A DNA stretch of 64,000 nucleotides from Squalus acanthias (Eukaryota): contig CM059451.1 in NCBI GenBank assembly GCA_030390025.1, positions 21,204,001 to 21,268,000 on the forward strand. The letters are read 5' to 3'. Under the pieces are notes generated by a model, which had not been told where the DNA came from, ran no database searches, and saw nothing but the letters and a program-made list of their open reading frames with translations. Position 1 is the stretch's first letter; each line of letters opens with the position of its first letter. This document shows positions 6,240-64,000 of the stretch, piece after piece. The translations under genes were made by a program, and so were the position numbers.

Positions 6240-6371
6240 GGGGGTGAATTTCCTCAGGGCTTCTCCAACTGTGCTGCTGTAACTTCAGCAGAAACCCCGT
6301 TTACACGTGCGTACAGGGTTTCTGCTGAAGTTAGGGCGGTGGAACGGGCAAAGCCCCGAGGAAATTCACCT
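6240..6371. mobile_element. ~130-bp hairpin MITE
   Basis: ggtgaatttcctc..aacttcagcagaaaccc / gggtttctgctgaagtt..gaggaaattcacc. Confidence 0.7.
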
Positions 6372-29555: not shown

Positions 29556-32500
29556 CCCCGACCACTCCCCACTCCAGCTATTCTACAAATGAGTCTCTGA
29601 TTCAGTTCAGCCTGGTTCAGATTTTGTGCATTCTGTTGATGTTACCTAAGCTGTGAGCTGTGATCCCTTTTAGATTTAGTCATCCCTACACAGGAAGTGG
29701 TAATCCCAGCCTCCTATTTAAGTTATTTACTGATCTTTTTGTTGCAAATATTAAATATAGATGAAACAAGAAGTGTTGGTAGTCTTAAATGTTCAAAGCA
29801 ATATTTAGAAAAGTTGAAGCCATGGCAAACCTCAGACGTCCTCTGTCTGTAGAATCAATGCTTTCAGCTAACTACAAACTTTTGAGCATCCACTCGGTGT
29901 TTGAGCAAAGATTGAATTTTTTTTTCTAGACCTCTCCCGATTATTGGATTTCACGTTACTATAAATTAAGAGTGTAGATGTAAACTGGGATAGATTAATG
30001 ACAACTGAGCCAGTGAGGTCATTGGGGCCAAAATGGTGCGATTTCCCCCTTTCCCAAAATTACCCATTCCCATAATTTGGCCATTTTTTCTATCTTTTTG
30101 TGTCCCCACCTCTCTTTTCCCCCACCCATTGAAATCTGAATAATCTAGAACTACCTAACATTTTCTTCATCTCTCTCTCTCTCTCTCTCTCTCTTCAGAT
30201 GGAAAGAGCTTATGAATCTTCTAGCTGTGCTCCCCCCACGTTTGTTTCTGCTGGAGTTCCCGGCACTTGGAAACCAGATGCCAAAGGTAGGTAGAAAAAA
30301 AGACGTGCATTTAAATAACGCCTTTCACGACCTCTGGACGTCCCAAAGTGCTTTGCAGCCAATTAAATAGTTTTGAAGTGTAGTCACTATTGTAATGTTG
30401 GGAAATGCGGCAGCCATTTTGTGCACAGCAAACTCCCACAAACAGCAATGTGATACTGACAGGGCAGGGTGGGTGACCTGGTGATGGAAGGTGTCATCGA
30501 CAGTGTGAGTGTCTCACCTCCTGACTGCCTAAAGCCTTTCCACCATCTACAAGGCACAAGTAAGGAGTGTGATGGAATACTCTCCACTTGCCTGGATGAG
30601 TGCAGCTCCAACAACACTCAAGAAGCTCGACACCATCCAGGACAAAGCAGCCAGCTTGATTGGCACCCCATCCACCACCTTAAACATTCACTCCCTCCAC
30701 CACCGGCGTACCGTGGCTGCAGTGTGTACCATCTACAAGATGCACTGCAGCAACTCGCCAAGGCTTATTTGGCAGCACCTCCCAAACCCGTGATCTCTAC
30801 CGCCTAGAAGGACAAGGGCAGCAGGCGCATGGGAACACCACCACCTCCAAGTTCCCCTCCAAGTCACACACCATCCTGACTTGGAAATATATCGTCGATC
30901 CTTCATCGTCGCTGGGTCAAAATCCTGGAACTCCCTCCCTAACAGCACTGTGGGAGTACCTTCACCACATGGACTGCAGCGGTTCAAGAAGGCGGCTCAC
31001 CACCACCTTCTCAAGGGCAACTAGGGATGGGCAATAAATGCTGGCCTTGCCAGCGACGCCCACATCCCATGAACGAATTTTTAAAAAAAGCTCCACAAAC
31101 AGCAATGTGATAATGGTAGGGCAGGGTGGGTGACCTGGTCCCAGTGCTGTTCTCAGCTGAATGTCAGGAGGCAAATGAGTGGCCCAGTGGTGGCTCTCCA
31201 TTCACTTTTTCCCTTTTGCAGCATGGCCAAGAACTGCTCAGCAGAGTGAAGGTCGAACCTGCATCCTCCATTCTGTCTAATACCTACCAGTAATTCAACT
31301 CTTGGTAGAATAAACATCAAGATTCAAAGTAATTAAATTTTGCATGGGACTTGGTGCAAGTTAGGTTACGGGCAGCAGAGTTTTGGATGAGCTTAAGTTT
31401 ATTGAAGGCAGAAGATGGGAGGCCGGCCAGGAGAGCGTTGGAATAGTTGAGTCTGGAGATAACAAAAGCATGAATGAGGGTTTCAGCAACAGATTGGCTG
31501 AGGCAGGGGCGGAGACGGGCGATATTACAGAGGTGGAAGTAGGTGGTCTTGGTGATGGAGCGGATATGGGGATCGGAAGCTCAGCTTGGGGTCAAATAGG
31601 ACGCAGAGGTTGCGAACGGTCTGGTTCAGCCTGAGACAGTGGCCAGGGAGGGGGATGGAATCGGTGATTAGGGACCGGAGTTTGTGGTGGCGGACTGGAT
31701 GTCAGACAAGCAGTCTGACAACACAGGCAGTGGAGAGGTCAAGAAAGGTGGTGGTGAGGTAGAGCTGGGTACCGTCAGCGTATATGTGGAACAGAAAGTG
31801 AGAAACCCCTTCACACAGAGAATTGTGAGACAGTATTTATCTGCCAATTATGAGTTTTGCTATCAAGGTGGAGCATGGATTGGACTGAGACTGCTCAAAG
31901 TTTTCACCGAAGATCATTGATCTCCGTGTCAGAGGAGATGCCATCATCCTTTGTGCTAGCTTAAGACCAAAGTCCGAGCCATAAAATGAACACATTGTGC
32001 CATAGACTCGTTGTCACTCTGATGGTTTTGTAGGACTGAGGTGATGCTGATACTGTGAAAACCTCTCTTTCAGATCTAGAAAAGCAAACACCTGACAGAG
32101 TGTTACGACCATCTAACCATCACTTCAGCAGTACTCTGGCTCCATCATCACAAAACCTATGGCATCCGAGACGTATACCTGCTCCCCCTTCAAGTGTGGT
32201 CAGTATACATCTAGGGTTGGGTTTGAACTGGTGGTTTGTGTATTAGACTTCCGAGAAATCATTTTGAGTACCGATGATCAAAGGGTAGTAGATTGGTATA
32301 ATAAACTAGTAACTGAAAAATGTATTTGTAATGACTGTCCTATCCAAGGAAATTGGAAGCATTTTATATTGATCAGTACAAAAAGAAAATACTGCAGATG
32401 CTGGAAATCTGAAATAAAAACAGAAAATGCTGGAGATACTCAGCAGGTCAGGCAGCATCTGTGAAGAGAGAAACAGTTAACGTTTCAGGCTGATGACCTT

Positions 32501-35500
32501 TCGTCAGAACTGCTTTTTTTCCAGTTCTGACGAAAGGTCATCGGCCTGAAACGTTAACTCTCTTCACAGACCTGCTGAATATCTCCAGCATTTTCTGTTT
32601 TTATTTATATTAATCAGTGTTCAGTCTTAAGGTTAATGTGTAACTTTAAGGTTAAGGTATGTGGTTACTTTCCTTATCTTCCTGCCAATTTTCTTTCTTC
32701 GTCCTCACCCAGTGTCAGTTATTCAAGCCTTTTGTCAGTGGGCGGGGGGGGAGGAGGTCTTGCCACAGCCACACCCGTTCATTCTTCTTCCTTTCTCTAT
32801 TTTTCGTTTTCCTATCCAGGACACTGAGGCCAATTATAGTGCCTCTTTGAACGCTGTGGCTAAGATAAGCTAACCCAACACAGACTGGGTTAGAAGACAA
32901 CGTACATGTGCCCCCCTGCTCCCAAAAAAAAGGTGACTAGCCTGCTGACACTTGCAGTCTAGGATCACTTATAAAGAATCCTCGTTTAGGTGAGGTAGTA
33001 GAGAAGTGTAGAACAATACATCTGCATGAGTTACTATCTTTACAAGAAAGGGGAGGGGGAATTGAAGGGGGATATAAAGGAACTTGCTGGAAATAAAATA
33101 GAAATTCATGCTCAAATGTACTGTCTAGTACTTTAAGATTTTAACATTTGATTTTTTTTGAGAGTTACTTGTGTTGAGTAAAATAAGTGAACAGTAATTT
33201 TCCTTTAAACTCTGCATTAATTGTTTAGTTCAATTACATTTACAGCATAATTGCAAATTCAGTTCAAAACAAGTTTATTGAAGTAAAATGAGTTAAATTC
33301 TAAAATGCTGCGTACTCAAATGCTCCCACCAATCATGAACATTTAGTGACAATATGGGCTCAGCAATTTAATAAAGAACTTGTACACGTGTACTTTTAAT
33401 TGCCATTAGCGATACAAAAGGGGAGTTGAGAACTTTTTTCACCCAGAGGGTGGTGGGGGTCTGGAACTCCCTGTCTGGAAGGGTGGTAGAGGCAGAAACC
33501 CTCATCACATTTAAAAGTACTTGGATATGCACTTGAAGTGCCGTAACCTACAAGGCTACAAACCAAGAGCTGGAAAGTGAGATTAGACTGGATAGCTCTT
33601 TTTCTAAATCACTGGTTCAAAATCAGTGTTCACACTTAATGGAGTGACTGACAAACCCACAAAGCCAGTATGACTTCAGAATGAGCAGTTAAATGTGTTC
33701 CTATTGCTACTAATACTCTTAATAAATTCTTACTACCCTGTTCAATTTGTAGTGTTCCTTCTCCTGTATGTGTTGAGAATTTGAGATCCTGCATTTCTGC
33801 TTCCAAGCACTGTCCTTTTTCATTCACAGACATTCAGAAATTTGGTCTAGGTTCTTTTGTTAACCTACCTTTTTTCATTCCTACAGGTTGCAACTTACAA
33901 ATCTGTGAAATGGTCAGATGTTCACTCTGTTACGGGCAAGGCAGATGAGAGTAATGCCTCAGACCATGCAAAGGATGGTGACTATCTGCCAATGGTGGGT
34001 GAAGGATAGCGAGACCGTATTTGTGTCATGTAGCACATTGCAACTTTTTCTGTTGATTTAAGTTGGTAATGTTTGTTCGAAGACTACTGTATATACTCTT
34101 GTACAAGACAAGAATTTATGTCACTGGGGGTTGAAAGAGCGGTCATAAAACCCATCTTTTTGGCCAAGCTGTCAGTCACCTGTCCTAACTCTCCCCTTGT
34201 GGCTTGGAATCCATTCCTTTTTCTCTCCCTCTGTAAAGTGCCTCGGAAAGTTTTTTTCAGTTAACGTTGCCTTATAGACACAAGTTGTTGTTGAACGAGG
34301 CTGCTAAATATCGCACTAAACGAACATTGTCCAAATAGCTGGTCACTGCGCAAACAAAATGCAGAAATTGGCTTTCTCGAAATTAAAGGGGTGTGATCAC
34401 GTTGGTTACCTTTTTTTCAAATTAGATAGGCCTCCTGGTTTTAAAGAGTGTGTTAACTGTCTTAGTTACAAATTTTAAGCAGTTTTGTATACGCAAATGG
34501 ACAGAAATCAAAGCTGAGGCCTTCAGTGTTGTTCCATCAATTGTCACTAGGAGGTACACTCTCTAGGACCGCCACCAATGTTTCCCAATTTTCTGATAGG
34601 GTGCAAATGAAGTTCTGTAAAATAACATATCAAAGTGAAGGCGTGATGAGATTTTGCACTGCGTATGTAATGGGTTTGACACATTCTCTATTTTAGGATC
34701 GGATAGTACTTCGTCTTTTTAATGATTCAGAAGATCCAAATGAAGTCGAGAAAGCAACAGAGACCCCAAGCTTGAAGCAGCAATTGGAAAGACCAAAGTC
34801 CAAGCAGGGTCCGGGGCTGGTCGATCTAAAGCTGGAAAAGCTAAAGGTACAAGAACCGGCGTTTAATGGCTGTAATTTAAACACTAGTTAAAATACACTC
34901 GTACGGCTTCCAGTAATGTCGTTATTTGTTGACTTTGTATCACTTGGGTGTTCTAAAACTTTGCTCCTTTCACAGCCTCATTAATTTCCTTCCCTTTTCC
35001 CAACAATTTCATATGGTGGGAGGGTTGTGGGAAAGGGAGGAAAAAAGAGGATCTCTCTCTCTTTCCTCCCCTCCAGCATCCTTATTAAAAAAAAAGCTAA
35101 TGAATACAGTTTACATAATTAGCTTATGATTCTTTCAACCTAAGGTACTAAGACTAATGGGAGTGTTTTCCCTTTTTGGTTTTCGTGTTCTCTTGTTTCT
35201 CATTTCTAGTGCTAATTTTCCTCCCCGCCTGCTGTTCCCTGGCCAAAAGAAGAGTTGCTCAATTCTCTGCCAGTACTTCTGTTCTCCACTCCTCACAATG
35301 GCATAGCTGAGCATTCACCGTGTATGCATCAACGTTCCCGCCAAGCTACGCGGCTGCGCAGCTGTCTGGAGGTCCCGCGCAGGCCGCTTACCGGCTTTTG
35401 ACTGGGAGATTTTGCACATGCGTGACATTTTGAATGGGCCGCGCAGCCCGTTAAATGGACCACGCACCCAAAAGAAAAAATTAGGGGGAGCATTGGTATT

Positions 35501-38500
35501 CATCTTTCTTTGTGATCCATGATTTAAGAGTGGAGTACCAAGTGCTGTGTCATCATTTTCTTTGTTCTGTTTTCTCCAGGTTCTTGAGCTGTTGTGATTT
35601 TTATTTTACAGAAAATTGAACTTCTTGCACAACTTCTTCAGAAAGAGATGCAAGAGGTAAAGGTGATTGAAGAGACGCTCACAGAAAGCAACTGTGACGC
35701 AAGTGTACCCATCTTCCCAGAAGAACATCCCAATTTGGCTGGTGCCGTCTTGAAAAGCAGACCAATCACCACAGCCTTGAAGCAGCAAGAAGCTGAAAAA
35801 CATGCCCTGCCTTCCCACTGTACGGCCCTGACTTCTAATCAAACACCTATGCTTGTGGCCTGTTCAATACAGACTAACTGTGTTTCTGGAGCTGCAAATA
35901 GTCTTCCTACCATCGGCCGCCAGTCTGAGATGTTGCTTCCTTCTACTGACATGGCTTTGAATGTGATGGACACATTGCCCACACCCATTTCCCATAGCTC
36001 TTCACACTTGCACACAACTGTCCAGGGGTTAAAATCCCAATCTCTTTATTGCAGTGGAAACAGAGGTGAGCTACTTATCATTAGTATCATAGAATCATTT
36101 ATATATGTAGATTTAGGAAGTTAGATAGGTTGCTTTTATAATGAAAGGACTGTTCTACCAGGGCAACACGGTGGCATAGTGGTTAGCACTGTTGCCTCAC
36201 AGCGCCAGGGACCTGGGTTCGAATCCGGCCTCAGGTGACTGTCTGTGTGGAGTTTGCACATTCTCCCCGTGTCTGCGTGGGTTTCCTCCCGGGTGCTCCG
36301 GTTTCCTCCCACAGTCCAAAGATGTGCGGGTTAGGTTGATTTGGCTATGATAAATTGACCCTTCGTGTTAGGGGGATTAAAAACGTGGGGTTACGGGGAT
36401 AGGGTGGGATATGTGTCGGTGCAGGCTTGATGGGCCGAAATGGCCTCTATCTGCATTGTGGGGCTTCTGTGATTATTACAGCATAATATTCTGCTGCTAC
36501 AGTTAACCGGGCCAGTCCTTTTAAGGCCACAAATTCCTAATTGTTGTAAATGGGGATAATGAGGTTAATTTCTGTCGGTGAGGGAAGTTTTCAGATCGGC
36601 AGGTGCTTGTATGGCTCCAGGTCAATATAAAATGATTACCTATCTTTGTTTATTTAAATTTTGACACTTTCTGAAGTAATATCCTGACGTATTGTAAAGA
36701 TGAGAAATGCCATGATATTAAGGGTAGACAGTGTGAGATTCACAGCGCCCTTCTCGTGTTTTGAATCCCTGTTTAGTCTCGGAGCTAAAAGTATCCAACA
36801 GAAACTGGGAATGTTCATTCTCAGCACAGCAGCCAGATCTCTGAAGAGGAGTAAAAGTCCCTCCAGGTTACTGGAATTATTAAGAACATTCCATTCCCCC
36901 TACAAAAGCAACATTTCTTTTTAAAGGAAAAAGACTTGTATTTGTGCAGCACTTTATTGTATATCTCACCAAGATCTCAAAATGCTTCACATACAATGGA
37001 TGACTTTTGAAGTGCAAAGACTGCTGTTATGTCGGTAACCATAGCAGCCATTTTGTACAAAGTAAGATCCCATACTTAACAATAAGAAGAATGACCAGCT
37101 AATCTGTTTTAGTGGAGCTGGTTGAGGGTGAAAGTTTGGCCAGGACATTTAATGGGTCTTTAACCTCCACCCAAACAGCTGTGTCAGTACTGCACTCCAG
37201 TGTCGGCCTAGATTGAGTCCTGGAGTGGTGCTTGAACCCACAATCTTCTGACTTGGAGATGGAAGTGTTATCAACTGAGCAAAGCTGATCATTGATCAAT
37301 GAATAACTATTGCAGTTTGATCCCACTTTTTATTCTCAACTGGAGTATTGCATCCAGTTCTGGTCACCACACTTTAGGGAGGATGTGAAGGCCCTTGAGA
37401 GGGTGCAGAGGAGATTTACCAGAATGGTTCCGGGGATGGGGGTATCTTAGTTACAAGGACAGGTTGGAGAAGCTGGATGTGTTTTCATTAGAGCAAAGGA
37501 GGTTGAGGGGTGATTTGATAGAGGTGTACAAGATTATGACGGGTTTGGATAGGCTAGTTGATGGTACAAGGACTAGGGGACACAGATTTAAGGTTTTGGG
37601 CAAGAGATACAGGGGGATGTGAGGAAAAGCTTTTTTACGCAGTGAGTGGTGATGACCTGGAACTCGCTGCTGATGGAAGTGGTGGAAGCGGAGACACTCA
37701 ATGTTTTCAAGGGGAGACTGGATAGGCACTTGAGGGAAATAAACTTGCAGGGCTACGGGGATGGAGCGGGGGAATGGGACTGACTGGATTGCTCTACAGA
37801 GAGCCGGCACGGACTCTGGGCCGAATGGCCTCCTTCTGTGACATTATGACTCTGACTCTATTCATGAATTGTAAAGTTCACAGGTGCAATTTAGAAATGC
37901 TTCTTTTTTCCGGAGAAGTATAAAAAGGACAAGTTCTGGGTTTGGATACTACAATTGAAAACAAAAAAAATGGCCCACTTAGTTACAAGTATTCACCAAA
38001 AGACAGTTGATCCTAGTTTTTTGGAAATTATTTGAGTACCATTAGAATTGCACTGTGAACTTTAAAAGCTGCCTGTTCTGACCTCCAGGCAGAGCTACCC
38101 TGCTCTCGACCGGCATCAAGCAAAGGTTTGGTGAGATTCTTCCTGGATGCCGAAAACGTTTCCAGGAGGCACTTTTAGACGACGAGGTTTCCTGTTGGCT
38201 CGCTCGTGCCATCCAGTCACCTGATGGGAGGATAAAGAGGGAAAGAAACTGCACCAATCCAGTAGCCAAAATACTTGAGCAACAAGAAGTTATGGTGAGT
38301 AATACCACCACCAAAGAAGAACTTCCGGGGTATTGTCCCTTGATCTAGTGTGAATTTTGTTCCTGGGAAGGGAAAGGAGCAAACAAGGTCAATCTTCCTT
38401 ACAGTAGCATTTGTGATTTACAGCATGCCAATCTAGGTTTGTGACTTGCACAAGTGTACTTCAGCAACAGTTACAAGTTGACCTAAACATTTGTAAAAGC

Positions 38501-40354
38501 TTTTGTCTCACTTTCTGCATGGCTTTCAGAAAGTGAGACGAAAGCCCTCATGGGGAACGGGAGAGTTTTGCCATCTCCAAAGAGGGACCTGGGTGTCCTT
38601 GTACACAAATTACTGAAAGTTAATATGCAGATACAGCAAGCAATTAGGAAAGCAAATGGTATGTTAGCCTTTATTACAAAAGGATTGGAGTAGAAGAATA
38701 AACAAGTCTTACTGCAATTATACAGGGCCTTGGTGAGACCACACCTGGAGTACTGTGTACAGTTTTGGTCTCCTTACCTAAGGAAGGATATACTTGCCTT
38801 AGAAGGGAGTGCAACAAAGGTTCACCAGACTGATTCCTGGGATAGGGGTATTGTCCTATGAGGATAGATTTGAGTAGACTAGGCCTATATTCTCTAGAGT
38901 TTAGAAGAATGAGAGGTGATCTCATTGAAACAGACAAAATTCTTAAGGGGCTTGAAGGGGTAGATGCTGGGAGGATGTTTCCCCTGGCTGGGGAGCCTAG
39001 AACCAGGGGCCATTTAGGACTGATGAAGAGAAATTTCTTCACTCAAAGGGTTATGAATCTACCCCAGAGGGCTGTGGACGGCCAGTCGTTGAGTATATTC
39101 AAGACAGAGATTAATAGATTTTTGAATATTAAGGGAATCAAGGGATATGGGGATAGTGCAGGAAAGTGGAGTTGAGGTAGAAGATCAGCCATGATCTTAT
39201 TGAATGGCGGAGCAGGCTCAAAGGACCGAATGGCCGACTTCTGCTCCTATTTCTTATTCTTGTGTTCTTAAAATGCAGACTCCATTTTAATCTTTTTCAA
39301 ATGACCATAATGAGTGAAACAAACATGCTAGCTTTGGTTCTAACTTTTTAGCTGGTTTCCAGTTTTGGACTATATGTTCAGTTAGTTGTGTTGTCACCGT
39401 TCAACAATAATCTGTACATGCCTCATCAAAGTATTTTTGTATTTTTTTTTCCACAGAGCCTGCATAACTGGCCCAAATTAAAATCTGTTTCTGGTGCTAA
39501 AGGAGCCACCCTTGGTTCTGGGCACAAACCTGTGTCACCACTTCTTTAAAACAGGGCTGCCTTTCATCCTTCTTTAAAATTTGGATAGCTTTGCAAAACT
39601 TTCCAGTTATGTACACCATCACCCATTGGACAGATGGGTGTGTTGCAAGAGTCTAACTGGAGGGGGCAGTTGATTTTTGTTCCGAGCCTTTTTTATTTTA
39701 TTCGTTCCTGGGATGTGGGCGTCGCTGGCAAGGCCAGCATTTATTGCCCATCCCAAGTTGCCCTTGAGAAGGTGGTGGTGAGCCTCCTTCTTGAACCGCT
39801 GCAGTCCGTGTGGTGAAGGTACTCCCACAGTGCTGTTAGGGAGGGAGTTCCAGGATTTGGACCCAGCGACGAAGGAATGGCGATATATTTCCAAGTCAGG
39901 ATGGTGTTCCCATGCGCCTGCTGCCCTTGTCCTTCTAGGTGGAAGAGGTCGCGGGTTTGAGAGCTGCTGTCGAAGAATCCTTGGCGAGTTGCTGCAGTGC
40001 ATCTCGTAGATGGTACACACTGCAGCCACGGTACGCCAATGGTGGAGGGAGTGAATGTTTAAGGTGGTGGATGGGGTGCTAGTCAAGCGAGCTGCTTTGT
40101 CCTGGATGGTGTTGAGCTTCTTGAGTGTTGTTGGAGCTGCACTCATCCTTTCAGATTTGTTTGCAGCCCTAAAACTGATCGCAGAAACTTTTAAATTGGT
40201 ATTATCTTGGATTCTAACTCTGCATATTTCTGCCCCACAGCACTTTGTCCCAATCGAGCTGGCCCCTTGCATAACCAGCCAGAAGTGTCTCCAACAATTT
40301 CTGGTGTCGGTTCATGAGCAAACAAGTCCTGCCCTGTGGGTGGCGCAATTATGA
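8966..40354 (+). CDS. TROAP: Tastin (trophinin-associated protein) ortholog, 14 coding exons, about 794 aa
   Basis: GT-AG exons join in phase except at exon 5/6. Blocks match recalled human tastin: [18 protein letters not shown] ~ EFVADPAALATILSGEGV; [10 protein letters not shown] ~ EQVAVRLFDQ; [13 protein letters not shown] ~ RIGILQQLLRQEV; [22 protein letters not shown] ~ CFHEARLDDE..CTNPVATLLEWQ; HFVPI ~ CFIPV. Confidence 0.9.
9500..10066. repeat. ~80-bp inverted repeat (9500-9580 and 9986-10066)
   Basis: aagacaaccaactgatgtggggaagca..tcattattttgtatcactacacaaa and its reverse complement. Confidence 0.8.
9657..10558. mobile_element. Old inverted pair of Penelope-like termini (9657-9800 and 10420-10558)
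   Basis: Arms related to the 32.4-kb element (gacctgctg..tttccagc..ttttctgtttt); degenerate hammerhead CAGTT-CTGAAGA..GAAAAGTT-GACTG at 10467-10504. Confidence 0.55.
11711..11909 (+). CDS. TROAP: TROAP exon 2 (KEN box, [15 protein letters not shown])
   Basis: Acceptor ttcttggcag, donor AAG|GTAAAG, open frame, phase 2 to 0. Confidence 0.85.
12360..12760 (+). mobile_element. Deu-domain SINE
   Basis: Family head, core and tail, with internal deletions. Confidence 0.85.
14010..14230 (-). mobile_element. Old SINE-like repeat (related copies ~23965-24330 +, ~42590-42850 -, ~47735-48010 -)
   Basis: Shared degenerate motifs (tagggaggggaaaa, ttccagcagg, gctgagttagc). Confidence 0.45.
14641..14984 (+). 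CDS. TROAP: TROAP exon 3 ([17 protein letters not shown]...)
   Basis: Acceptor cattttag, donor GCA|GTAAGT, 344 nt open, phase 0 to 2. Confidence 0.85.
15003..15060 (+). repeat. (TC)n microsatellite
   Basis: About 29 perfect TC units, 18 nt downstream of exon 3. Confidence 0.95.
15906..16048 (+). CDS. TROAP: TROAP exon 4
   Basis: Acceptor ctgtctctag, donor CAG|GTACTT, phase 2 to 1. Confidence 0.8.
16634..17232. mobile_element. MITE, probably Harbinger-derived
   Basis: Termini GGGGGAAATTTTAA / TTAAAATTCCGGCC; GC-rich subterminal repeats. Confidence 0.6.
18160..18313. mobile_element. hAT MITE with 8-bp TSD
   Basis: TIRs CAATGTTCCCT / AGGGAACGTTG; TSD GCTATCAG / GCCATCAG. Confidence 0.8.
19312..19707 (+). 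mobile_element. Deu-domain SINE (3'-truncated)
   Basis: Family head and core. Confidence 0.85.
21009..21173 (+). CDS. TROAP: TROAP exon 5 ([18 protein letters not shown]...GKLSLA); 3' end is 21173 or 21187
   Basis: Acceptor ttgtag; conserved tastin block; donor ambiguous (see findings). Confidence 0.85.
22320..22497 (+). mobile_element. Deu-domain SINE 3' half
   Basis: cagattatctggtcattatcacattgc...ggcgctatataaatgcaagt. Confidence 0.8.
25513..25603 (+). CDS. TROAP: TROAP exon 6 (MGRSSYMPC...WGRASCI)
   Basis: Long pyrimidine tract + tag; donor AAG|GTAAGC; resembles human RASAYL..PARASCF. Confidence 0.8.
26449..27274. mobile_element. MITE, probably Harbinger-derived
   Basis: TIRs GGGGGTGATTTTGCCA / TGGCAAAATCGCTCCC. 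Confidence 0.65.
28312..28439 (+). CDS. TROAP: TROAP exon 7
   Basis: Acceptor ttccctttcag, donor TTG|GTCTGT, phase 1 to 0. Confidence 0.7.
30199..30286 (+). CDS. TROAP: TROAP exon 8
   Basis: Acceptor (ct)n-tcag, donor AAG|GTAGGT, phase 0 to 1. Confidence 0.75.
30295..30455 (-). mobile_element. Deu-domain SINE 3' part
   Basis: Reverse-complement tail starting 9 nt after the exon 8 end. Confidence 0.8.
30483..31088 (+). mobile_element. 5'-truncated, internally deleted CR1-group LINE
   Basis: [27 protein letters not shown]; same family as 46342-47710. Confidence 0.9.
31345..31790 (-). mobile_element. L2-type LINE fragment
   Basis: Overlaps the L2 at 50700-50826 in sequence (gagttttggat..ggaggccggccaggagagcgttggaatag). 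Confidence 0.7.
32074..32198 (+). CDS. TROAP: TROAP exon 9 (..[13 protein letters not shown])
   Basis: Acceptor ctctttcag, donor GTG|GTCAGT; resembles human GRAQRVPSPGPP. Confidence 0.75.
32475..32511 (-). ncRNA. Minimal hammerhead ribozyme motif (mirror copy)
   Basis: Reverse complement AGUU-CUGACGA-A-AGGU..GCCU-GAAA-CG-UU-AACU. Confidence 0.6.
32523..32559 (+). ncRNA. Minimal hammerhead ribozyme motif
   Basis: AGUU-CUGACGA-A-AGGUC(AUC)GGCCU-GAAA-CG-UU-AACU; palindromic AACGUU stem III. Confidence 0.65.
33420..33605 (+). mobile_element. CR1 3' fragment
   Basis: [13 protein letters not shown] and tail. Confidence 0.75.
33887..33994 (+). CDS. TROAP: TROAP exon 10 (..DGDYLPM)
   Basis: Acceptor ttcctacag, donor ATG|GTGGGT, 108 nt, phase 0 to 0; end resembles human DPALPW. 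Confidence 0.75.
34697..34846 (+). CDS. TROAP: TROAP exon 11 ([13 protein letters not shown]...)
   Basis: Acceptor ctattttag, donor AAG|GTACAA, 150 nt. Confidence 0.85.
35330..35495. mobile_element. hAT MITE, same family as 18160-18313, opposite orientation
   Basis: TIRs CAACGTTCCC / GGGAGCATTG; TSD GTATGCAT / GTATTCAT. Confidence 0.8.
35612..36065 (+). CDS. TROAP: TROAP exon 12 ([16 protein letters not shown]...)
   Basis: Acceptor ttttacag, donor GAG|GTGAGC; coincides with ORF 35594-36124. Confidence 0.9.
36161..36472 (+). mobile_element. HE1-like V-SINE
   Basis: tRNA head, V-domain tgtgtggagtttgcacattctccccgtgtctgcgtgggtttcc..ctccggtttcctcccacagtccaaaga, CR1-like tail. Confidence 0.85.
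36928..37280 (-). mobile_element. Degenerate Deu-domain SINE
   Basis: Diverged reverse-complement copy. Confidence 0.6.
37335..37860 (+). mobile_element. CR1 LINE 3' fragment
   Basis: [22 protein letters not shown] motif. Confidence 0.85.
38089..38294 (+). CDS. TROAP: TROAP exon 13 ([25 protein letters not shown])
   Basis: Acceptor cctccag, donor ATG|GTGAGT; conserved tastin C-terminal block. Confidence 0.92.
38578..39270 (+). mobile_element. CR1 LINE 3' fragment
   Basis: [32 protein letters not shown] motifs. Confidence 0.9.
39690..40147 (-). mobile_element. CR1-group LINE 3' fragment, ~95 nt before the last TROAP exon
   Basis: [21 protein letters not shown] on the minus strand. Confidence 0.9.
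40241..40354 (+). CDS. TROAP: TROAP terminal coding exon (HFVPIELAP...AQL*)
   Basis: Acceptor tgccccacag, phase 0, TGA at 40352-40354, followed by a repeat-poor AT-rich 3'UTR. Confidence 0.85.
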   Translation, partial: HFVPIELAPCITSQKCLQQFLVSVHEQTSPALWVAQL

Positions 40355-45795: not shown

Positions 45796-46341
45796 TAACT
45801 CCTCATCAGAAAGAAAAGTGAGAACCTTTTTTGAGTGTAGACCCTTTGTCAAAAACCAGTCATGGCCATAGTTGACCGGAAATAGTGGCAGAAAACTAGG
45901 AAATCTTAAGCAAGCTTGGCCCTACTTGTCACTGTTGGTAACTTAAGTGTTCTACAAAACCCTCCCACAGCTCTAAAGCACCACTCCCAGATTCTCTCCA
46001 CTGCCCCCTCAAAGCATTGCTCCCAGTTTCTGCCCTCTTCTCCTCCATTGCCATCCCTATCCCCTCAGCACTGCTTTTACCTCAGTCTTGCTGGGAAGTG
46101 ATTCCAGCTGCTGCATAGGCAGGAACTCCTGTTCTCATGAGAACTCTAGCCCACGGTATACAGTGGCCAGATCCACTTCCAGTAGCAGCAGAACTTCCAT
46201 ACGAGTGGCACGCTGATTCTTGTCCGCAAATTCTGAAACACTGACTAGACCCCCCAGTCAAAGAAGTGGGGAGAGAATCCAGAATGAGATCATGTGGCCT
46301 GTAAGGAATAGTACCAATCACAAACCCAATTTTTGTAGTTA

Positions 46342-47710
46342 CAATGTGGAAAACTGCCCAGGTATGTCCTGGCCACAAAAAGCAGGACAAATCCAATCCG
46401 GCCAATTACCGCCCCATCAGTCTACTCTCAATCATCAGCAAAGTGATGGAAGGTGTCATCGACACTGCTATCAAGCGGCACTTACTCACCAATAATCTGC
46501 TCACTGATGCCCAGTTTGGGTTCCGCCAAGACCACTCGGCTGCCGACCTCATTACAGCCTTGGTCCAAACATGGACAAAGGAGCTGAATTCCAGAGGTGA
46601 GGTGAGAGTGACTGCGCTTGACATCAAGGCAGCATTTGACCAAGTGTGGCATCAAGGAGCCCTAGTAAAACTGAAGTCAATGGGAATCGGGGGGAAAACT
46701 CTCCACTGGTTGGAGTCATACCTAGCACAAAGGAAGATGGTTGTGGAGATTGAAGGTCAATCATCACAGCCCCAGGACATCGCTGCAGGAGTTCCTCAGG
46801 GCAGTGTCCTAGGCCCAACCATCTTCAGCTGCTTCATCAATGACCTTCCCTCCAACATAGATAATGAAGCATTCCATGCCCGCATGCAACAAGACCTGGA
46901 CGACGTTCAGGCTTAGGCTGATAAGTGGCAGGTAACTTTCGCGCCACAGACGTGCCAGGCAATGACTATCTCCAACAAGCGAGAGTCTAAACACCGCCCC
47001 TTGACATTCAATGGCATTACCATCGCCGAATCCCCCACCATCAACATCCTGGGGGGTCACCATTGACCAGAAACTGAACTGGACCAGCCACATAAATACT
47101 GTGGCAACAAGAGCAGGTCAGAGGCTGGGTATTCTGCAGCGAGTGTCTCACCTCCTGACTCTCCAAAGCCTTTCCACCATCTACAAGGCACAAGTAAGGA
47201 GTGTGATGGAATACTCTCCACTTGCCTGGATGAGTGCAGCTCCAACAATACTCAAGAAGCTCGATACCATCCAGGACAAAGCAGCCCGCTTGATTGGCAC
47301 CCCCTCTACCACCTTAAACATTCACTCACTCCACCACCGGCATAATGTGGCTGCAGTGTGTACCATCTACAAGATGCACTGCAGCAACTCGCCAAGGCTT
47401 CTTTGGCAGCACCTCCCAAACCCGCGACCTCTTCCACCTAGAAGGACAAGGGCAGCAGACTCATGGGAACACCACCACTTCCAAGTTCCCCTCCAAGTCA
47501 CACATCATCCTGACTTAGAAGTATATTGCCGATCCTTCATCGTCGCTGGGTCAAAATCCTGGAACTCCCTACCTAACAGCACTGTGGGAGTACCTTCACC
47601 ACACGGACTGCAGCGGTTCAAGGCAGCAGCTCACCACCACCTTCTCAAGGGCAACTAGGGATGGGCAATAAATGCTGGCCTTGCCAGCAACACCCACATC
47701 CCATAAAAAA
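46342..47710 (+). mobile_element. CR1-group LINE ORF2 (RT) 3' part, inactive
   Basis: NYRPISLLS, QFGFR, LDIKAAFD, GVPQGSVLGP; the xADD segment is missing near 46858; stop at 46914; frameshift near 47051. Confidence 0.92.
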
Positions 47711-49904: not shown

Positions 49905-50050
49905 CAAAGGGATGATGGTGCAAGGTAAAAGGGGGTGGTAATTGACAAATAAAGAAACAAAAGATGGCTCTGAAATGTTAACTCTGTTTCTCTCTCCACA
50001 GATGCTGCCTGACCTGCTGAGTATTTCCAGCATTTTCTGTTTATACTTTA
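49905..50050. mobile_element. Penelope-like terminal fragment (same family as 32.4 kb)
   Basis: gaaatgttaactctgtttctctctccacagatgctgcctgacctgctgagtatttccagcattttctgttt. Confidence 0.6.
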
Positions 50051-50231
50051 ATATAGAAACCTGATTTTTCCACTTCTGTGTGTTGTGATGTGGGGGGGAG
50101 GGGGAGGGGGTATTTGTTAAGACTGGTAATGTTTTCAACGACTTTTCCTCAGCAACAAAGCAAACCTCAGAACTTAAGCTAAGATCCCACTCTGCCCCCT
50201 TCCTGTTTATTCGTTTTTGGGCGCGGCAAAC

Positions 50232-54648: not shown

Positions 54649-57600
54649 GTAAGGAAAGGGGTTTAATTCTCCCCTCCCCAATCAATCAGGGAATATTCTC
54701 AGCTTGAAGGCAATTAACGTCCGATTGTAGTTTGTTCATCATAGGATGCTAAATGATCTCGTTCAAGCGTGCTTTAACAAGTGGTTTGAAGTGCTCGCTG
54801 CTTTTCTGCAGATTACGGCTTTAAAACTTGTATTTTTGAACTATCCAGAGATTTGTCTTAGCGTGGCAAGATAAAAAAAAGAGGGAAAAATAGATGGATA
54901 GAGGGTAATGGAGGGACATGACTAGGTGAATCAAAAAACAAAAATTAGACACTGTAGCTTGAAAGACAGAATGATGGATAAATACAGGCAGATGGGTACA
55001 CAGGAGAGAGAGGTAGCAAGGTATGTAGCATTGCGAGGGGGTGATAGATAAACAAAAAGGCAATGGATGGATGTCGAAACTTACATAAAGTCTGACTATC
55101 AATGAAGAGGATAAATACCAGGCGATGAAATAAATGGGTAGGAAGAAAAAAAATCAGAGGCAGAAAAAACACAAAGGAGTTGGCAGACCTGATAGATGTG
55201 TAAATGAATACGGCGCACATAAATTTAATGGTTAACAATTCATACATATCTGTTCGTTTATATGAGTCTTTATATAAGATTAATATACTGTATATCTCAT
55301 CCATTTGTACTGTGTATAGTACCCACTGGGTAAAACAACTCAATTTGATTTGGTATTGTATGGCTGTTATATGCAATGTTCTCTCCTGTATGCAGCTGAT
55401 GTAAATAGATTAAGTGACATGTCCAGCTCAGCAGAGCTGATATTTAATTGCTGAATGAGATATTTCGGTGATGGAGAGGCTGGTATTTATCTTCAAGTTC
55501 TCGGATGGATGCAGAAGTGGCATAAATGGTGCCCATCTCCTGTACAAATGCTGTAGGCGCAATGTACAGATAGTATGTAGCTCCTGTCGGATAGCTGGGG
55601 AGGTTTACTTTCCATTGTTTATGCTCGACCCCCATCGTCGCTGCTGAGCTGACGGGCGGGAATTTAGTGGTAATCGTATTCGGTATACATTGTAAGTTAC
55701 ATAAACCTCAGCATGGGGACAGTGTTTCAGAACCTGAAGGTCTGTATTGATAATGGAGAATCTGTCATTTCCCTGTGTAGTGCTTAAAGTGGGAATAGAA
55801 GCTGCCGAATCAATCCATGTATGTCCCCTGTGTTACATGTGTAATGGTGTTACCTTTCATGATGTTTGTAATGTAGATAGAAAGAAGTGAGAGGTATTTA
55901 GAGAGAGAAATAGAAAGATGGAGAGAACAAATCAAGTCTGTAGCGATGTGGAGAGAAAGATAGACAGAACAAGAGAGCAATGAAGAGAACGAAGTAAAAG
56001 GAAAGTAGAGACACAGGGATATAAATTCATTTTAGGTGGTAGCGCAAAACGGGCGATAGCGAATCGACTGCCTGTTTTACACTTGACTCCGCCCAATTTT
56101 CTTTACCCTTGACCAATGGAAAAGAAAGTCGGGCGGTGTGCAGAACAGGTGGACGATTTATACCCCACAAACTTTACGATATGCCCTGGTGACGATAAAT
56201 CACAACAGCATAACCACGAGTGTCTGCTGGGATGGAGGGCAAGTCACCTCGCCACTGGTGCAGACTTGCAGAATTTAGGGTAGAGAGGGAGAGAAGGACA
56301 GAAAGAGTGACAGAGAAAGAGAAAAAGAAAAAGAGAGAAACAGAACATCACTGGCTGATGTGAATTGCTTAAGCACCTAAACACACTGGGGTGAGCAGAG
56401 AACCGAACCAAAATGTTGGATTGTACAAGACCAGGCTTGCAGTGTTTCCCTGTAAACTTGTGTCTGGCATCTTTAAACCATTTTTTAACTGAAATATCAA
56501 CTATCCCGGGATCTCACTTACGTTGCAAGATAACATCAACAGTGTACTGATGAAAAACATGCATGTTCAGGCAGAAAGGTATGAACAGGAAGCCTGGAGT
56601 TGAGATCAGTCTGAGGGAATCCAGGATTTGTCCACTCGGGCCTGTGGGACATCTGCTGGAGTCTATGGAACATTCATGTGTGGATCTAGGGTCTGTGATG
56701 GGTTCTTGTGGAAAACTTCAGGCTTCACTTGAGATATGTAAAATATTTTTTGTGCGGAAGGACGGAGTCCTCATCCAGAAGTCAAAATCATCCTTGTGAG
56801 GAAGTGTGAAGCCTGGTAATAACAGAGTTTTTTTTTGGGGGGGGGACGGGGAAGGAAGATTATCGAAGTAGTGATCACAATAGGAGTGAACAATGGGATG
56901 AGTGTTGAGAATAGCTGTGGAACAGTGCACAGAGACGATAATTTCATCCGTGTTGCTAAATGAAGATCAATTTGCTTTTAAGGGGAAGCTAGATAAGCTA
57001 GATAAGGAGAAAGGAATGGAAGGATATGCTGATAGGGTGAGATGAAGTAAGGTGGGAGGAGGCTCGTGTGGAGCATGGACCAGTTGGGCAGAATGGCCTG
57101 TTTCTGTGCTGTGCATGTTATGTAATTCTATGTGAAGTTTGCAAGGAAATACAATCTAAAAGGGAAAAGAATCTCCATAGTGACGCTGTCTTTCTTTGTC
57201 TTAGGAGTTGAAGAGTCGCAGGTTCTGGCGCTCGGTCTTAGCAGAGCTGGTTGGTTCCCTGGTCTTGGTTTCGGTTATTTTGGGCGCCTCTGCCCCTGGA
57301 CAGGAAGATGGAGTTCCAGTGCTGATGCAGGTGGCTGTAGCTGCTGGGTTTTCTGCTGTCAGCCTGATCCACTGTTTTGGAGAGATTAGCGGTGCTCAGG
57401 TAAACCCGGCTGTCACACTCGCATTCCTGTGCACCAGGAAACTGGATTTTCTCCAGTTTGTGTCCTATCTTTTGGCTCAGTGTCTTGGAGCTGTGATTGG
57501 ATCGGGGATAATCTACATGTCACTGCCGATCAAGTCAACATCAAGGCATTTAGTCAACATGGTGAGTCCATTTACTATAATATTTTCCCTGTTGATTTAT

Positions 57601-60600: not shown

Positions 60601-62830
60601 TCATCGACTCTCCTCTACGCTATAGCATTCTCTAAATTGAATCGCTCTGATTTGCTGCCCTCACTAATGCTCATGCTGCACATTTAACCAGCAACAAGAG
60701 CAGGTACGCTCCAGAGAAACCCCCTGGAAAATAAGCCCTCAATCTTCAATTAGACAAATAAAATCTACCAACAATACCACTCCTCGGTGACACTAAACAA
60801 CAACTTAAAAATACTCATTTAACATGAATTTACCCAAGTGAGGAGCAATAGAGGGAGAATGACTTACATAGGATTACATAGGATATACGGCACAGAAACA
60901 GGCCATTCGGCCCAACCAGTCCATGCCAGCGTTTATGCTCCACTCGAGCCTCCTCCCGTCTTTCCTCATCTAAATCTATCAGCATAACTCTCCAATCCCT
61001 TCTCCCTCATATGCTTGTCTAGCCTCCCCTTAAATGCATCTATACTATTCGCTTCAACCACTCCCTGTGGTAGCGAGTTCCACATTCTCACCACTCTCTG
61101 GGTAAAGAAGTTTCTCCTGAATTCCCGATTGGATTTCTTGGTGACTATCTTATATTTATGGCCCCTAGTTTTGCTCTTCCCCACAAGTGCAAACACTCTC
61201 TCTGTATCTACTCTATCAATGACTTAATGAGGGAGTTTGGTTTTAAACAGGAATTCAGTGGTAGATATTGATTAACTTTCAGTTGTTGATTCACAGAAAC
61301 TAGCAACTGGTTTAAACCTGTAAGTGCTGAACTTGGGACTGAGTGACTGGTGGTTAGTTGTTAATTGTTAACTGCATAGTTACAGCTGATTAAGCTGGGA
61401 AAGGGCGAATCGAACACTGGCATTTGGCTACATCTTAAGCGGGATACGAAGCGGTAAACTAGTGAGAGCCACTTGAGCTGTGAGAGCACCCAAGTAACAG
61501 GAAATCGGAGTGTATAGATCAAGGGAATGCAGTGGGTGTTGTATATATATGGATTTTCAGAAAGCATTAAATAAGGTGCCACATAAGGGACACATGGCAG
61601 ACTCAATAAAGAGCAGGTGACCCGCCCTACCAGATTACCACCCAGACGGTGAAGACGAAAATCGACACCTTGGTATTAAAGGGAATGTAGCCACATGAAT
61701 CAATAAATGTCATGGGGAGAGAGCAAAGATTTGGAGTCAGTTCATGTTTTTCAGGTTATTGGGATGTGGGTAGTGGTGTGCCCCAGGGATCTGTGCTGGG
61801 ACTTCTTTTATTTTGAAACCATGGAAGTATACAGCACAGAAAGAGGCCATTCAGCCCATCGTGCCTGTGCCAGCTCTTGGCTACAGAAACCGAAAAATAA
61901 TCCCCTTGCCCACTTTCTCCCCATTGCCCTGTATCTTCTTCTGTTTCAAATGTTATCTACCTTTCGCTTAAGAGATCCAATGGTCTCTGCCTCGACTACT
62001 CCGTGTGGCAAAGCATTCAATGCCCCAGTAACTCTCTACATAAAGAAATTTCTCCCAACCTCTCTCCTCACTGTCTTAGTGACTATTTTAAATTGACAGC
62101 CCCTCAACACTGACTCCCCAAGCAGAGGAAATAATCTTTCCCTATTCACTGTATCAAAACCCTTCATAGTTTAAAAAACTTCTATTAAATCTCCTCTTCA
62201 CCTTCTCTGCTCCAGAGGAAATAGTCCCATTACCTCAAGTCTCTCCTCATAATGTTCGTCTCTCAACCCGTCGTCATCCTGGTGAATCTTCGCTGAACGC
62301 TCGCTATGGCTTTAATGTCCTTTCTATTATGGGGCGTCCAAAACCTCACACAGTACTCTCAACTATGGCCTAACCAATGCGTTGTGCAAACTTATCATAA
62401 CCTCTTTACTCTTTGTGCTCTACGCCATATTTATAAAACCCAAAATACTAATTCACTTTTTTATGGCTTTATCTACATACACGAGCACTTTCAGGGCATT
62501 ATGCATTTCTCTGTTATGACTCTATAACATACAAGATCTATGCAAAGCATTTAAATACACCGTCTCAATCAGTAGTTAGAAATTCTTCCCTCTTCATACA
62601 GCCATGGTTTCATTTATGTATCCCGGGAGTCTCAATCTTAGATGATTTCATGTGTTTCCGAGCAGATCAACAAAGATGGAAATGCTGGCCAAGCACTTGC
62701 GATGGAGATAATTGCCACATTCCAGTTGGTTTTCACTATATTTGCTGTGGATGATCATCGGCGTAGGGAAGTGGGAGAACCTGGCAGTCTAGCAATAGCC
62801 TTCAGCCTGTCAGCAGGAATCCTGGCATCG
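54634..62830 (+). CDS. aqp14: Aquaporin-14-type channel, first three coding exons (3' part outside window)
   Basis: Spliced product MSFRE|ELKSRRFWRSVLAELVGSL...CFGEISGAQVNPAVT...LVNM|INKDGNAGQALAMEIIATF..DDHRRREVGEPGSLAI. FGEISGAQVNPAVT and RRRE.xEPG match recalled fish Aqp14 rather than AQP0/2/4/5. Confidence 0.85.
56016..56166. mobile_element. Short MITE (family of 5146-5303)
   Basis: TIRs gggatataaat / atttatacccc. Confidence 0.55.
56975..57132 (+). mobile_element. CR1 3' tail ~70 nt before aqp14 exon 2
   Basis: Matches the tail at 1787-1940. Confidence 0.8.
57205..57561 (+). CDS. aqp14: aqp14 exon 2 (TM1-TM3, first NPA)
   Basis: Acceptor tttgtcttag, donor ATG|GTGAGT, 357 nt; MIP-family NPA motif. 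Confidence 0.93.
57700..58010 (-). mobile_element. tRNA-headed SINE (family of 2795-3100)
   Basis: Reverse complement with gtgggatttgaact B-box and gccctgagaagatggtgag tail. Confidence 0.6.
58690..59400 (-). mobile_element. PIF/Harbinger (HARBI1-like) DDE transposase remnant in aqp14 intron 2
   Basis: ALPVAVKVT..YATGSFQ, VIDGAHVAI, YRNRKGFHSIYMQVV, ARYPGNSHDAFILRQS; frameshifted. Confidence 0.85.
60104..60562 (+). mobile_element. Full-length Deu-domain SINE
   Basis: Most complete copy: tRNA head, Deu core, L2-like tail. Confidence 0.9.
60865..61218 (-). mobile_element. CR1 3' fragment
   Basis: ORF 60966-61196 [25 protein letters not shown]. Confidence 0.88.
61510..62500. mobile_element. 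Old CR1 fragments (61510-61810 +, 61820-62500 -)
   Basis: Decayed DQGNAV..MDFQKA..KVPH and PQGSVLG on the plus strand; CR1 tail on the minus strand. Confidence 0.65.
62666..62830 (+). CDS. aqp14: aqp14 exon 3 (TM4-TM5)
   Basis: Acceptor gagcag, donor TCG|GTAAGA, 165 nt; GQALAMEIIATFQLV motif. Confidence 0.9.
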
Positions 62831-62982
62831 GTAAGAACCACAAATGTCTGCTGCTTAAACCAGTGGTACTGTGCATGGCACAAAAAAGCTTCCTCTACAT
62901 CAAAGAGACATGCTTCCTCTATAGTGAATAAAAATGAGAAGTCGCACAACACCAGGTTATAGTCCAACAGTTTTATTTGAAA

Positions 62983-63020
62983 TCACAAGCTTTCGGAGCT
63001 GCTGCTCCTTCGTCAGGTGA
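62983..63020 (-). ncRNA. Minimal hammerhead ribozyme motif (mirror copy)
   Basis: Reverse complement UCAC-CUGACGA-A-GGAGC(AGCA)GCUCC-GAAA-GC-UU-GUGA. Confidence 0.7.
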
Positions 63021-63028
63021 AGTCGACT

Positions 63029-63065
63029 TCACCTGACGAAGGAGCAGCGCTCCGAAAGCTTGTGA
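63029..63065 (+). ncRNA. Minimal hammerhead ribozyme motif
   Basis: UCAC-CUGACGA-A-GGAGC(AGC)GCUCC-GAAA-GC-UU-GUGA: core, stem I, stem II and palindromic AAGCUU stem III. Confidence 0.7.
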
Positions 63066-64000
63066 TTTCAAATAAAACTGTTGGACTATAACCTGGTGTT
63101 GTGCGACTTCTCACTTTTGTCCACCCCAGTCCAACACCGGCATCTCCGCATCTATAGTGAATGGCAGAGGGATATGAATTCTCACGACACACTGGGCCAA
63201 TTAGTGCAATAAGAAGGTCCCATTGTTTTGTGCTTTTGAAGACCAACTCTTATCTAGGTTTAGCACATAAGCTATGAGTTCTAGGCTTTTGAACTGTAAG
63301 TGTCCATTGGAACCAGAGGACAATTCAACATGGAGCAGATAGAAGATATGGTTTGAGACCTCATTCTGAATTCAGGGGGACTGTGTGGTGCAAGAGGTTA
63401 GCGCACTGTCCTTTCACCTAGTTCACTCCTAGCTCAGCAGCAAGGGCCAACATGAAATCAGTTTGGGCAATGTCAATCCAGGTCCGAGTACGCATGGGCC
63501 CACAACACAAAATTGCCTCTAAGTTAGCAACGTCACGCAGAGATGTCACGAGAATGGGCTGGCGTAGGAAATGAAAAGTGTCACAGTGGTGTGGTTGCAG
63601 CTGTCCTTCTGATGCTTGGCAAGAGTGACAAAAAATGTTAACCAACAGTTTTAAAGCATAAAACAGGGTAGTGAGGGATGATTGAGAGCACCAGTAACCA
63701 GATACTTTCCTTTATAATATTTAGGGTTCTTCAGCAGACTATGTTTGCCCTTTAAGTATGGGAGCAGTGCTGGGATTGGTCTGTGTTTCCTGCTCAGTCA
63801 CTAAAATCAGATCACATTTAATGGGTTATTTTACTAATTCGTGCTCCCACCATGGAGCTCTGGAGAGCGAGAGTGCGTGTCGGGAATTCAGGCAGGCAGG
63901 CAGTCCCCAAGACTGCCCATTCTAGATAGACGGTGCTGGGGAACGGGCGTCTGGATTCCCGCGACACACTGGGGCCAGGCGAAGCGCCATGATGGGAGCA

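Follow-up and report, generated by a model that had tools for sequence, protein, structure and literature searches.

A loop-free Penelope-type hairpin insertion in an aquaporin gene of Squalus acanthias with arms from two family variants: a possible two-template origin

Genomic context and layout of the locus

The window analysed in this study is a stretch of 64,000 nucleotides from Squalus acanthias (assembly GCA_030390025.1, contig CM059451.1, positions 21,204,001 to 21,268,000 of the forward strand). Near its right end it carries two aquaporin exons, followed by a short palindromic unit with a hammerhead motif on each strand (Table 1). The closest solved structures to the exons are aquaporin-4 and aquaporin-0, i.e., of the water-channel type, and no third or later aquaporin exon was found in the window. 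The unit begins 99 bp behind the splice donor of the 165-bp exon of this plus-strand gene and is thus likely transcribed within the aquaporin pre-mRNA as a long duplex.

In search of the reading frame of a parent Penelope-like element (PLE), the 127 open reading frames of the window were compared with Pfam. No GIY-YIG domain was detected; one RVT_1 match lies 16 kb off in LINE-like debris, and two matches are aquaporins. Apart from the upstream aquaporin exon, no Pfam family was matched by the frames passing through the unit. The LINE-like fragments are located at 46305-47707 (RVT_1 at 46305-46913), 30507-31093 and 39684-40148 and comprise three related 3' pieces of 85-94% identity. Three further palindromes, short and imperfect, lack hammerhead motifs and are MITE-like or decayed; they occur at 6243-6370, 26631-26674 and 38499-38545. 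Two inverted pairs were also observed: 9487-9580 with 9986-10081 (about 400 bp apart, 90% complementary) and 63842-63891 with 63951-64000 (59 bp apart, 70% complementary).

Table 1. Positions of the aquaporin exons and of the parts of the hairpin unit in the window.
Feature	Position	Strand	Remarks
Aquaporin exon	57205-57561	+	Pfam MIP
Aquaporin exon, 165 bp, second exon seen	62666-62830	+	Pfam MIP
Target-site duplication, left	62918-62929		Exact repeat; single at the empty site (X7 record 17); 12 bp, 9/12 A/T
Inverted stub without tail, 94 bp	62930-63023	-	4-nt loop II (extra T63000) and A62934; outer end coincides with the first of the two common family ends
Minimal type I hammerhead motif	62983-63020	-	Descriptor and fold; cut predicted from the fold between 62987 and 62986
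Central CG linker	63024-63025		Not parent sequence (compared with upstream letters of the parent); presumably one untemplated C per cDNA opposite the cap G
Direct stub, 93 bp	63026-63118	+	3-nt loop II and C63114; starts at A63026, likely the parent transcription start
Minimal type I hammerhead motif	63029-63065	+	Descriptor and fold; cut predicted after U63061
One-sided tail, 32 bp (34 bp including 2 letters shared with the TSD)	63119-63150	+	Stops at the second of the two common family ends
Target-site duplication, right	63151-63162		Exact repeat

A first-pass annotation of this DNA had described a palindrome with no loop, arms of about 89 bp and a single bulge, and this description was borne out. 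The axis lies between 63024 and 63025, positions 62935-63024 pair with 63025-63113, and T63000 is the sole unpaired base. The RNA fold computed for the 221-nt unit (62930-63150) reaches -169.5 kcal/mol versus -52.2 +/- 4.3 kcal/mol for shuffled sequences (z = -27.6), and none of 200 shuffles was as good.

The hairpin is a genuine insertion

Positions 62760-63330 were compared with short contigs from three runs: X5, a further sample of organism A from another study, X6 from organism B, and X7 from organism C. The fraction of sampled words present was 0.96 in four runs of one sample and 0.94 in X5; the small shares in the RNA runs X9 and X16-X20 do not speak for expression. A raw-read run, X21, contributed only nine reads, 78% of them running on into unlike sequence, and was uninformative.

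The exact 12-mer that borders the unit on both sides had already been recognised as a perfect direct repeat. One X7 contig, record 17, passes directly from 62760-62917 to 63151-63330 and contains the 12-mer once, with flanks of about 97% identity. Since this contig carries the orthologous empty site with a single 12-mer, the repeat is a target-site duplication (TSD), short and at an AT-rich target. The 221-base hairpin is therefore a genuine insertion with an empty site in the related organism C. X6 record 16 reaches into the unit by only 10 letters, which suggests that organism B shares the insertion.

An artefact of assembly, or mere chance, is hardly credible as an explanation. Palindromes are difficult to assemble, and none of the contigs listed spans the whole unit, so that its centre rests on the window assembly and on both junctions in the second sample. 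However, the arms differ in length and at family alleles, and the TSD is exact and has an empty site. Both insertion junctions are letter-identical in X5 (records 1 and 8), in contigs that reach 23-24 letters into the unit and thus stay below the bridging rule of 31 letters.

An abundant repeat family of probable Penelope type

Contigs matching 62760-63330 numbered 12,819 in X5 (with 55% of this run covered), 1,410 in X6 and 3,220 in X7. The summed depth, which is not to be equated with copy number, amounts to 0.4-4 million in the arms versus 16-21 in the unique flank in X5. The arms thus belong to a very abundant repeat family. According to the loose ends of the contigs, other copies extend upstream of 63026, and copies stop at about 63111-63123 or at 63147-63152. 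Both outer ends of the unit coincide with these two common end positions of the family. Behind 63152, loose ends are provided by 136, 22 and 22 contigs of the three contig runs, and their consensus opens with ATG in all three. This ATG, from 63153 onward in the family consensus, may represent the parent start codon right after the tail.

In published descriptions, PLEs have an inverted, 5'-truncated copy next to their 5' end, and one of the two ends bears a tail of 30-40 bp (PMC8557442). The membership of the unit in this class is a structural assignment that rests on four features. These are a minimal hammerhead motif in the terminal repeat (recognised by descriptor and fold prediction, with no match to a curated model), an adjoining inverted, 5'-truncated head-to-head copy of a sequence that in other copies runs upstream of 63026, a tail of 32-34 bp on one end only, in good agreement with the PLE tail and with two family end positions, and the TSD. 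The unit is almost certainly a PLE-type stub insertion of known form, and the parent repeat is, judged from its sequence, likely the end module of a PLE. The first-pass reading of a young, ORF-less, TSD-flanked unit, inserted in a single event and made of hammerhead-bearing PLE-type termini, is thereby supported, the termini on structural grounds. Pattern scans of further collections gave zero and one loci in metagenome contigs, four in genome contigs and none in viral contigs; all five were rejected as chance matches of only 19-37 bases around the pattern.

Being short, palindromic, ORF-less and TSD-flanked, the unit also resembles a MITE-like DNA element, a retrozyme or a microRNA-like host hairpin, but each of these classes is highly improbable. 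A MITE would have uniform ends with symmetric terminal inverted repeats next to the TSD, whereas the ends found here are asymmetric, the 32-bp tail being confined to one of them, and there are two end positions and a variable centre. Non-LTR retrozymes are, like the unit, non-coding, hammerhead-bearing and PLE-derived, yet form head-to-tail tandem arrays (bioRxiv 10.64898/2026.07.22.740005); the unit is a single head-to-head pair, and no other copy of the arm occurs within the 64-kb window. The Rfam scores for microRNA hairpins are weak, 24-41 bits versus thresholds of 73-135. Furthermore, family copies stop at two positions and mostly continue upstream past the axis.

Hammerhead motifs are predicted to be masked in the hairpin

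The motif of the plus strand consists of stem I (63029-63032/63062-63065), the core (63033-63039), a bulged A63040, stem II (63041-63045/63049-63053), GAAA (63054-63057) and a self-complementary stretch (63056-63061). A minimal hammerhead descriptor matches 63033-63057 on the plus strand and 63016-62991 on the minus strand. With perfect stems required, the window yields four matches, two in the unit and two at 32.5 kb, versus a mean of 0.4 in 20 shuffled windows. Each arm folded alone forms stems I and II. Rfam reported nothing at gathering score over the window, hammerheads included, and no hammerhead among the eight matches up to E 10 over 62800-63300, all of which are generic hairpin models far under threshold.

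Minimal hammerheads are known from the pLTRs of metazoan PLEs, where opposite-strand pairs lie 100-700 bp apart (PMC4209133). The motifs found here share with them the core, the bulged base before stem II, G10.1-C11.1, a stem I of 4 bp and self-complementary positions in place of helix III. Unlike the published pairs, the cores of the unit are 16 bp apart in a perfect duplex, stem II has 5 bp and the triplet is CUU.

In the single arm, stems I and II are predicted to pair with a probability of 0.85-0.99; in the whole unit this value drops to 0.000, and forcing the hammerhead fold is predicted to cost about 62 kcal/mol. Both hammerhead motifs are probably silent in the whole hairpin, in which their fold is predicted to be fully masked. 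Minimal hammerheads are reported to be slow and to need a partner on the same strand (PMC4209133, PMC6765202). Working ribozymes on both strands are therefore unsupported, because of the predicted masking and because opposite-strand copies provide no same-strand partner. The earlier statement that either strand yields a hammerhead holds for the letters, but not for the predicted fold within the unit.

The predicted cleavage triplet CUU at 63061 has a CUC allele in the family, which makes up 32% of the depth in X5, 7% in X6 and 0 in X7. Among the head-to-head joints of other copies, 9 of 42 ends lie at most 3 nt from the predicted cut (63059-63065), with 3.5 expected (binomial p = 0.007 for a preset window, p = 0.08 after correction for scanning). 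This count derives from 24 of 108 joints (27 shown, minus one opposite-strand and two going-back rows), and six ends outside 63028-63110 were dropped. The joint ends may be a trace of cleavage in vivo, cut RNAs being sometimes copied, but the self-complementary hexamer at the predicted cut could also account for the enrichment.

The two arms correspond to two family variants

The left arm is family sequence outward to 62930, and the arms differ at two places only: the extra T63000 in loop II, and A62934 as opposed to C63114. Both differences recur in the family. The form with the extra T accounts for 53% of the depth of both loop forms in X5, 41% in X6 and 0.1% in X7. The T allele at 63114, to which A62934 corresponds in the left arm, reaches 23%, 40% and 0.01%, respectively, these shares being lower bounds as such contigs may also be placed on the left arm. 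Just 12 of 279 possible substitutions are listed as family alleles. Judged from these sequences, both arm differences are lineage-restricted family alleles, abundant in organisms A and B. The upstream consensuses of the two arms diverge beyond about 9 letters. X6 record 10 likewise combines the two arm variants in a palindrome, with the alleles in the same order and the junction shortened by 6 letters.

The match of the arms to two different variants of the family makes it likely that two RNAs served as templates. Gene conversion that acted on one arm once the unit was in place would give an identical picture.

Such conversion, from another subfamily, or mutation is also part of a rival account in which a single template was folded back, by self-priming on an antisense RNA or as a hairpin-capped cDNA, so that the arms were identical at birth. 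When a hairpin end is resolved by replication, a loop-free palindrome results, as is seen here. Palindromes at inverted PLE junctions have been explained by antisense self-priming (PMC3846280). Still, we regard the fold-back as rather unlikely at this locus. It is opposed by the two arm differences, both of which correspond to alleles that are abundant in the family and spread over the runs in the same manner, by the central CG, which is not parent sequence, and by the lack of an inverted repeat at this place in the parent on which priming could start. In addition, 21 of the 24 joints examined elsewhere are asymmetric, and each arm has the polarity and the outer end expected from its own nick.

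A second head-to-head hammerhead pair of the same form, from an unrelated family, is located at about 32371-32603. The arms of this palindrome at 32.4 kb share two states that are absent from three other copies in the window, which favours the fold-back, and one arm is about 9 nt longer upstream; both findings speak against two templates. The pair has its cores at 32507 (-) and 32527 (+), a T-rich spacer of 9 bp, a tail on the left arm only and an 8-bp direct repeat (32363-32370 and 32604-32611); its arm starts, too, fall within an initiator-like word. This family is further represented by three single copies in a more decayed state, at 10455-10575, 9640-9800 (-) and 49955-50065, of which the copy at 10472 matches the hammerhead descriptor with one mismatch.

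The axis marks a junction hot spot

The position of the axis, whose scoring over further copies had been proposed in order to separate a stand-alone hairpin family from a recurrent product, turned out to be variable. Within a few bases of it, seven other junction forms were found, in which 1, 2, 2, 3, 5 or 6 letters are omitted or G63025 is replaced by C; four of the seven occur in more than one organism. A further 108 joints (77, and 31 with letters between) lie elsewhere, and mapping of 24 head-to-head joints showed symmetry, about other axes, in 3 and asymmetry in 21. The axis is thus not fixed, the bulk of the family is not this hairpin, and junctions have a hot spot immediately 5' of the hammerhead. 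The depth at 63025 minus the listed variants is 4,429 in X5, 0 in X6 and 35 in X7. In X5 this corresponds to about 206-279 single-locus depths and to 70% of the near-axis depth, and in X7 to about 5 single-locus depths. The exact axis may therefore be multi-locus in organism A, and limited re-amplification may have occurred. Short contigs do not distinguish repeated formation from re-amplification, nor do they make the outer ends of the exact-axis loci readable.

These depths are also an argument for a self-propagating hairpin subfamily, in which an older palindrome with the same axis was read through and recopied as a whole by the PLE enzyme, the present locus being one copy. Single junction forms can indeed be multi-locus: the 6-letter-shorter junction forms one unbranched mixed-arm contig with a depth of 50 versus 3.3 for unique flank in X6, and of 482 versus 6.4 in X7. 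Moreover, pLTRs alone were described as sufficient for mobilisation in trans (PMC3846280). We nevertheless consider a subfamily unlikely. At most 0.1% of the peak arm depth crosses the exact axis in X5, next to the seven near-axis forms and the 108 joints, and the same forms are found in organism C, which lacks one arm allele, and hence arise repeatedly. Both outer ends lie on common start points of the family, and recopying would not recreate the far end. As a template, the hairpin would present a duplex of -169 kcal/mol. Of the two origins first considered, a recurrent insertion product hence fits better than a stand-alone family, in view of the widely varying junctions; the part of that proposal that invoked fold-back of a single template is unsupported, as the arms carry two alleles.

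A candidate capped start at the axis

The family-derived arms stop at 63023 and begin at 63026. The parent carries a C just before A63026, and the central CG is therefore not templated. In all eight near-axis forms one arm stops exactly at 63026, and none of the eight passes 63024. Untemplated letters occur in three of them, all of the type of a C after the cDNA end; with n = 8 forms and scoring against a reference that itself holds the CG, the reading of these letters is biased toward C or G.

A63026, the base at which both arms stop, is part of an initiator-like word (initiator consensus YYANWYY). TATAAG occupies position -28 in the upstream consensuses of runs X5 and X7, whereas a TATA-like word is absent from three of the five upstream consensuses (the right side in X6 and both of left-arm type); these consensuses derive from loose ends with an agreement of 0.5-0.75. 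A similar arrangement is known from a rotifer pLTR with a TATA box 20 bp ahead of an initiator-like TCACT (PMC3846280), and the Drosophila Penelope promoter lies in the corresponding repeat, yet is TATA-less (PMC2377424). An untemplated 5' G in L1 insertions was ascribed to copying of the cap (PMC9341517). Taken from these sequence features, A63026 is likely the capped start of the parent RNA.

Two other sources of the axis were rejected. In Drosophila virilis an intron end maps to helix I (PMC4209133), but the upstream consensus of the present family has no AG before 63026, which dismisses a splice acceptor. A ribozyme cut is dismissed as well, since cleavage at the predicted site, 36 nt downstream, would take away the core.

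A two-template, cap-to-cap model

From the insertion with its TSD, the limits of the arms, the one-sided tail, the arm differences that match family alleles and the non-parental CG, we infer the following course of events. A PLE enzyme would nick both target strands 12 bp apart. The top-strand end would then prime on one RNA at a first internal start (about 63119-63124), and the bottom-strand end on another RNA at the tail end (63150-63152); priming from opposite nicks would give each arm its cDNA polarity. Synthesis of the two cDNAs (94 and about 127 nt) would proceed through the uncut hammerhead to the RNA 5' end at A63026, where each cDNA would gain one C opposite the cap. Finally, the two cDNA 3' ends would be joined and the gaps filled, which would yield the loop-free centre.

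We hold the full two-template, cap-to-cap mechanism to be somewhat more probable than not at this locus. It is supported by the end clusters of the family, which resemble the two reverse transcription starts that delimit the tail in a characterised element (see below). The primer ends resemble the template in 4 of 6 letters on the left (0.04 by chance) and in 2 letters on the right. Joining from cap to cap, were it the usual outcome, would be expected to be frequent in each of the three runs, and the uneven depth at the exact axis speaks against this. The uneven junction spectrum across organisms suggests that some forms were amplified. As a general model, in which two capped RNAs are bound by a dimeric RT/GIY-YIG enzyme, one cDNA is begun from each target nick at the two internal starts and extended up to the cap, a C is added and the cDNA ends are joined, the mechanism is put forward with reservation and is rather doubtful. 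In the literature on Penelope twin priming and untemplated starts outside subscription papers, no proposal of cap-to-cap joining was found. The insertion product itself is predicted to be a dead end: its transcript would form a duplex of about 90 bp that masks the ribozyme and provides an ADAR-type substrate.

Comparison with known systems and implications

The architecture of the unit is already published (PMC8557442, PMC3846280), and the fresh hint is a mechanistic one. In Pen2a_Av of Adineta vaga, 31-bp tails, TSDs of 8-10 bp and palindromes at the junction were reported and tentatively attributed to antisense self-priming (PMC3846280). This element and the unit have in common the head-to-head inverted truncated copy, the junction palindrome, the one-sided tail and the short TSD, as well as a TATA word and an initiator-like TCACT. 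The unit differs in that it has no ORF and both copies are stubs of about 94 bp. Its two alleles and the CG linker are not predicted by the self-priming model of the Pen2a_Av study (PMC3846280).

The protein of the Poseidon element PAc from Anolis carolinensis cuts both target strands and extends each of them; it is a predicted dimer with uncut RNA as its substrate. Two internal starts of reverse transcription delimit the tail, a hammerhead lies shortly upstream, and the target is AT-rich (PMC11167929). Likened by description rather than by sequence comparison, PAc and the unit agree in a hammerhead shortly upstream of the two tail-delimiting starts and in the AT-rich target. The PAc ORF begins inside the hammerhead, whereas the first ATG of the present family follows just past the tail in the loose-end consensuses. 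No account of inverted pairs was found in the PAc paper (PMC11167929).

In a further system, the twin priming of mammalian L1 elements, both target nicks prime cDNA, and an inversion inside the TSD results. The likeness to the unit consists of the two-nick priming, the inversion within the TSD and an untemplated G at the RNA 5' end. L1 uses one RNA with a poly(A) tail, whereas the unit would stem from two internal starts on two RNAs meeting at their 5' ends.

From a biological point of view, nothing sets the unit itself apart from the great number of stub insertions that belong to this abundant repeat. In a lizard, A-to-I editing of Penelope repeats is heavy (PMC5625713), and a hairpin in an aquaporin intron would be a ready editing substrate. 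Its value is that of a probe of how PLEs build their tandem and inverted structures, the origin of which was described as still undefined (PMC8557442). The two arm alleles, at 40-50% in one host, provide a natural two-colour experiment that could separate one from two templates and capped run-off from fold-back. If the proposed mechanism is true, a single step would account for the TSD and the inverted copy as well as for the tail at one end only and the position of the axis just ahead of an intact hammerhead. Two-template joining would then supplant antisense self-priming as the general model, and each insertion would be born masking its own ribozyme.
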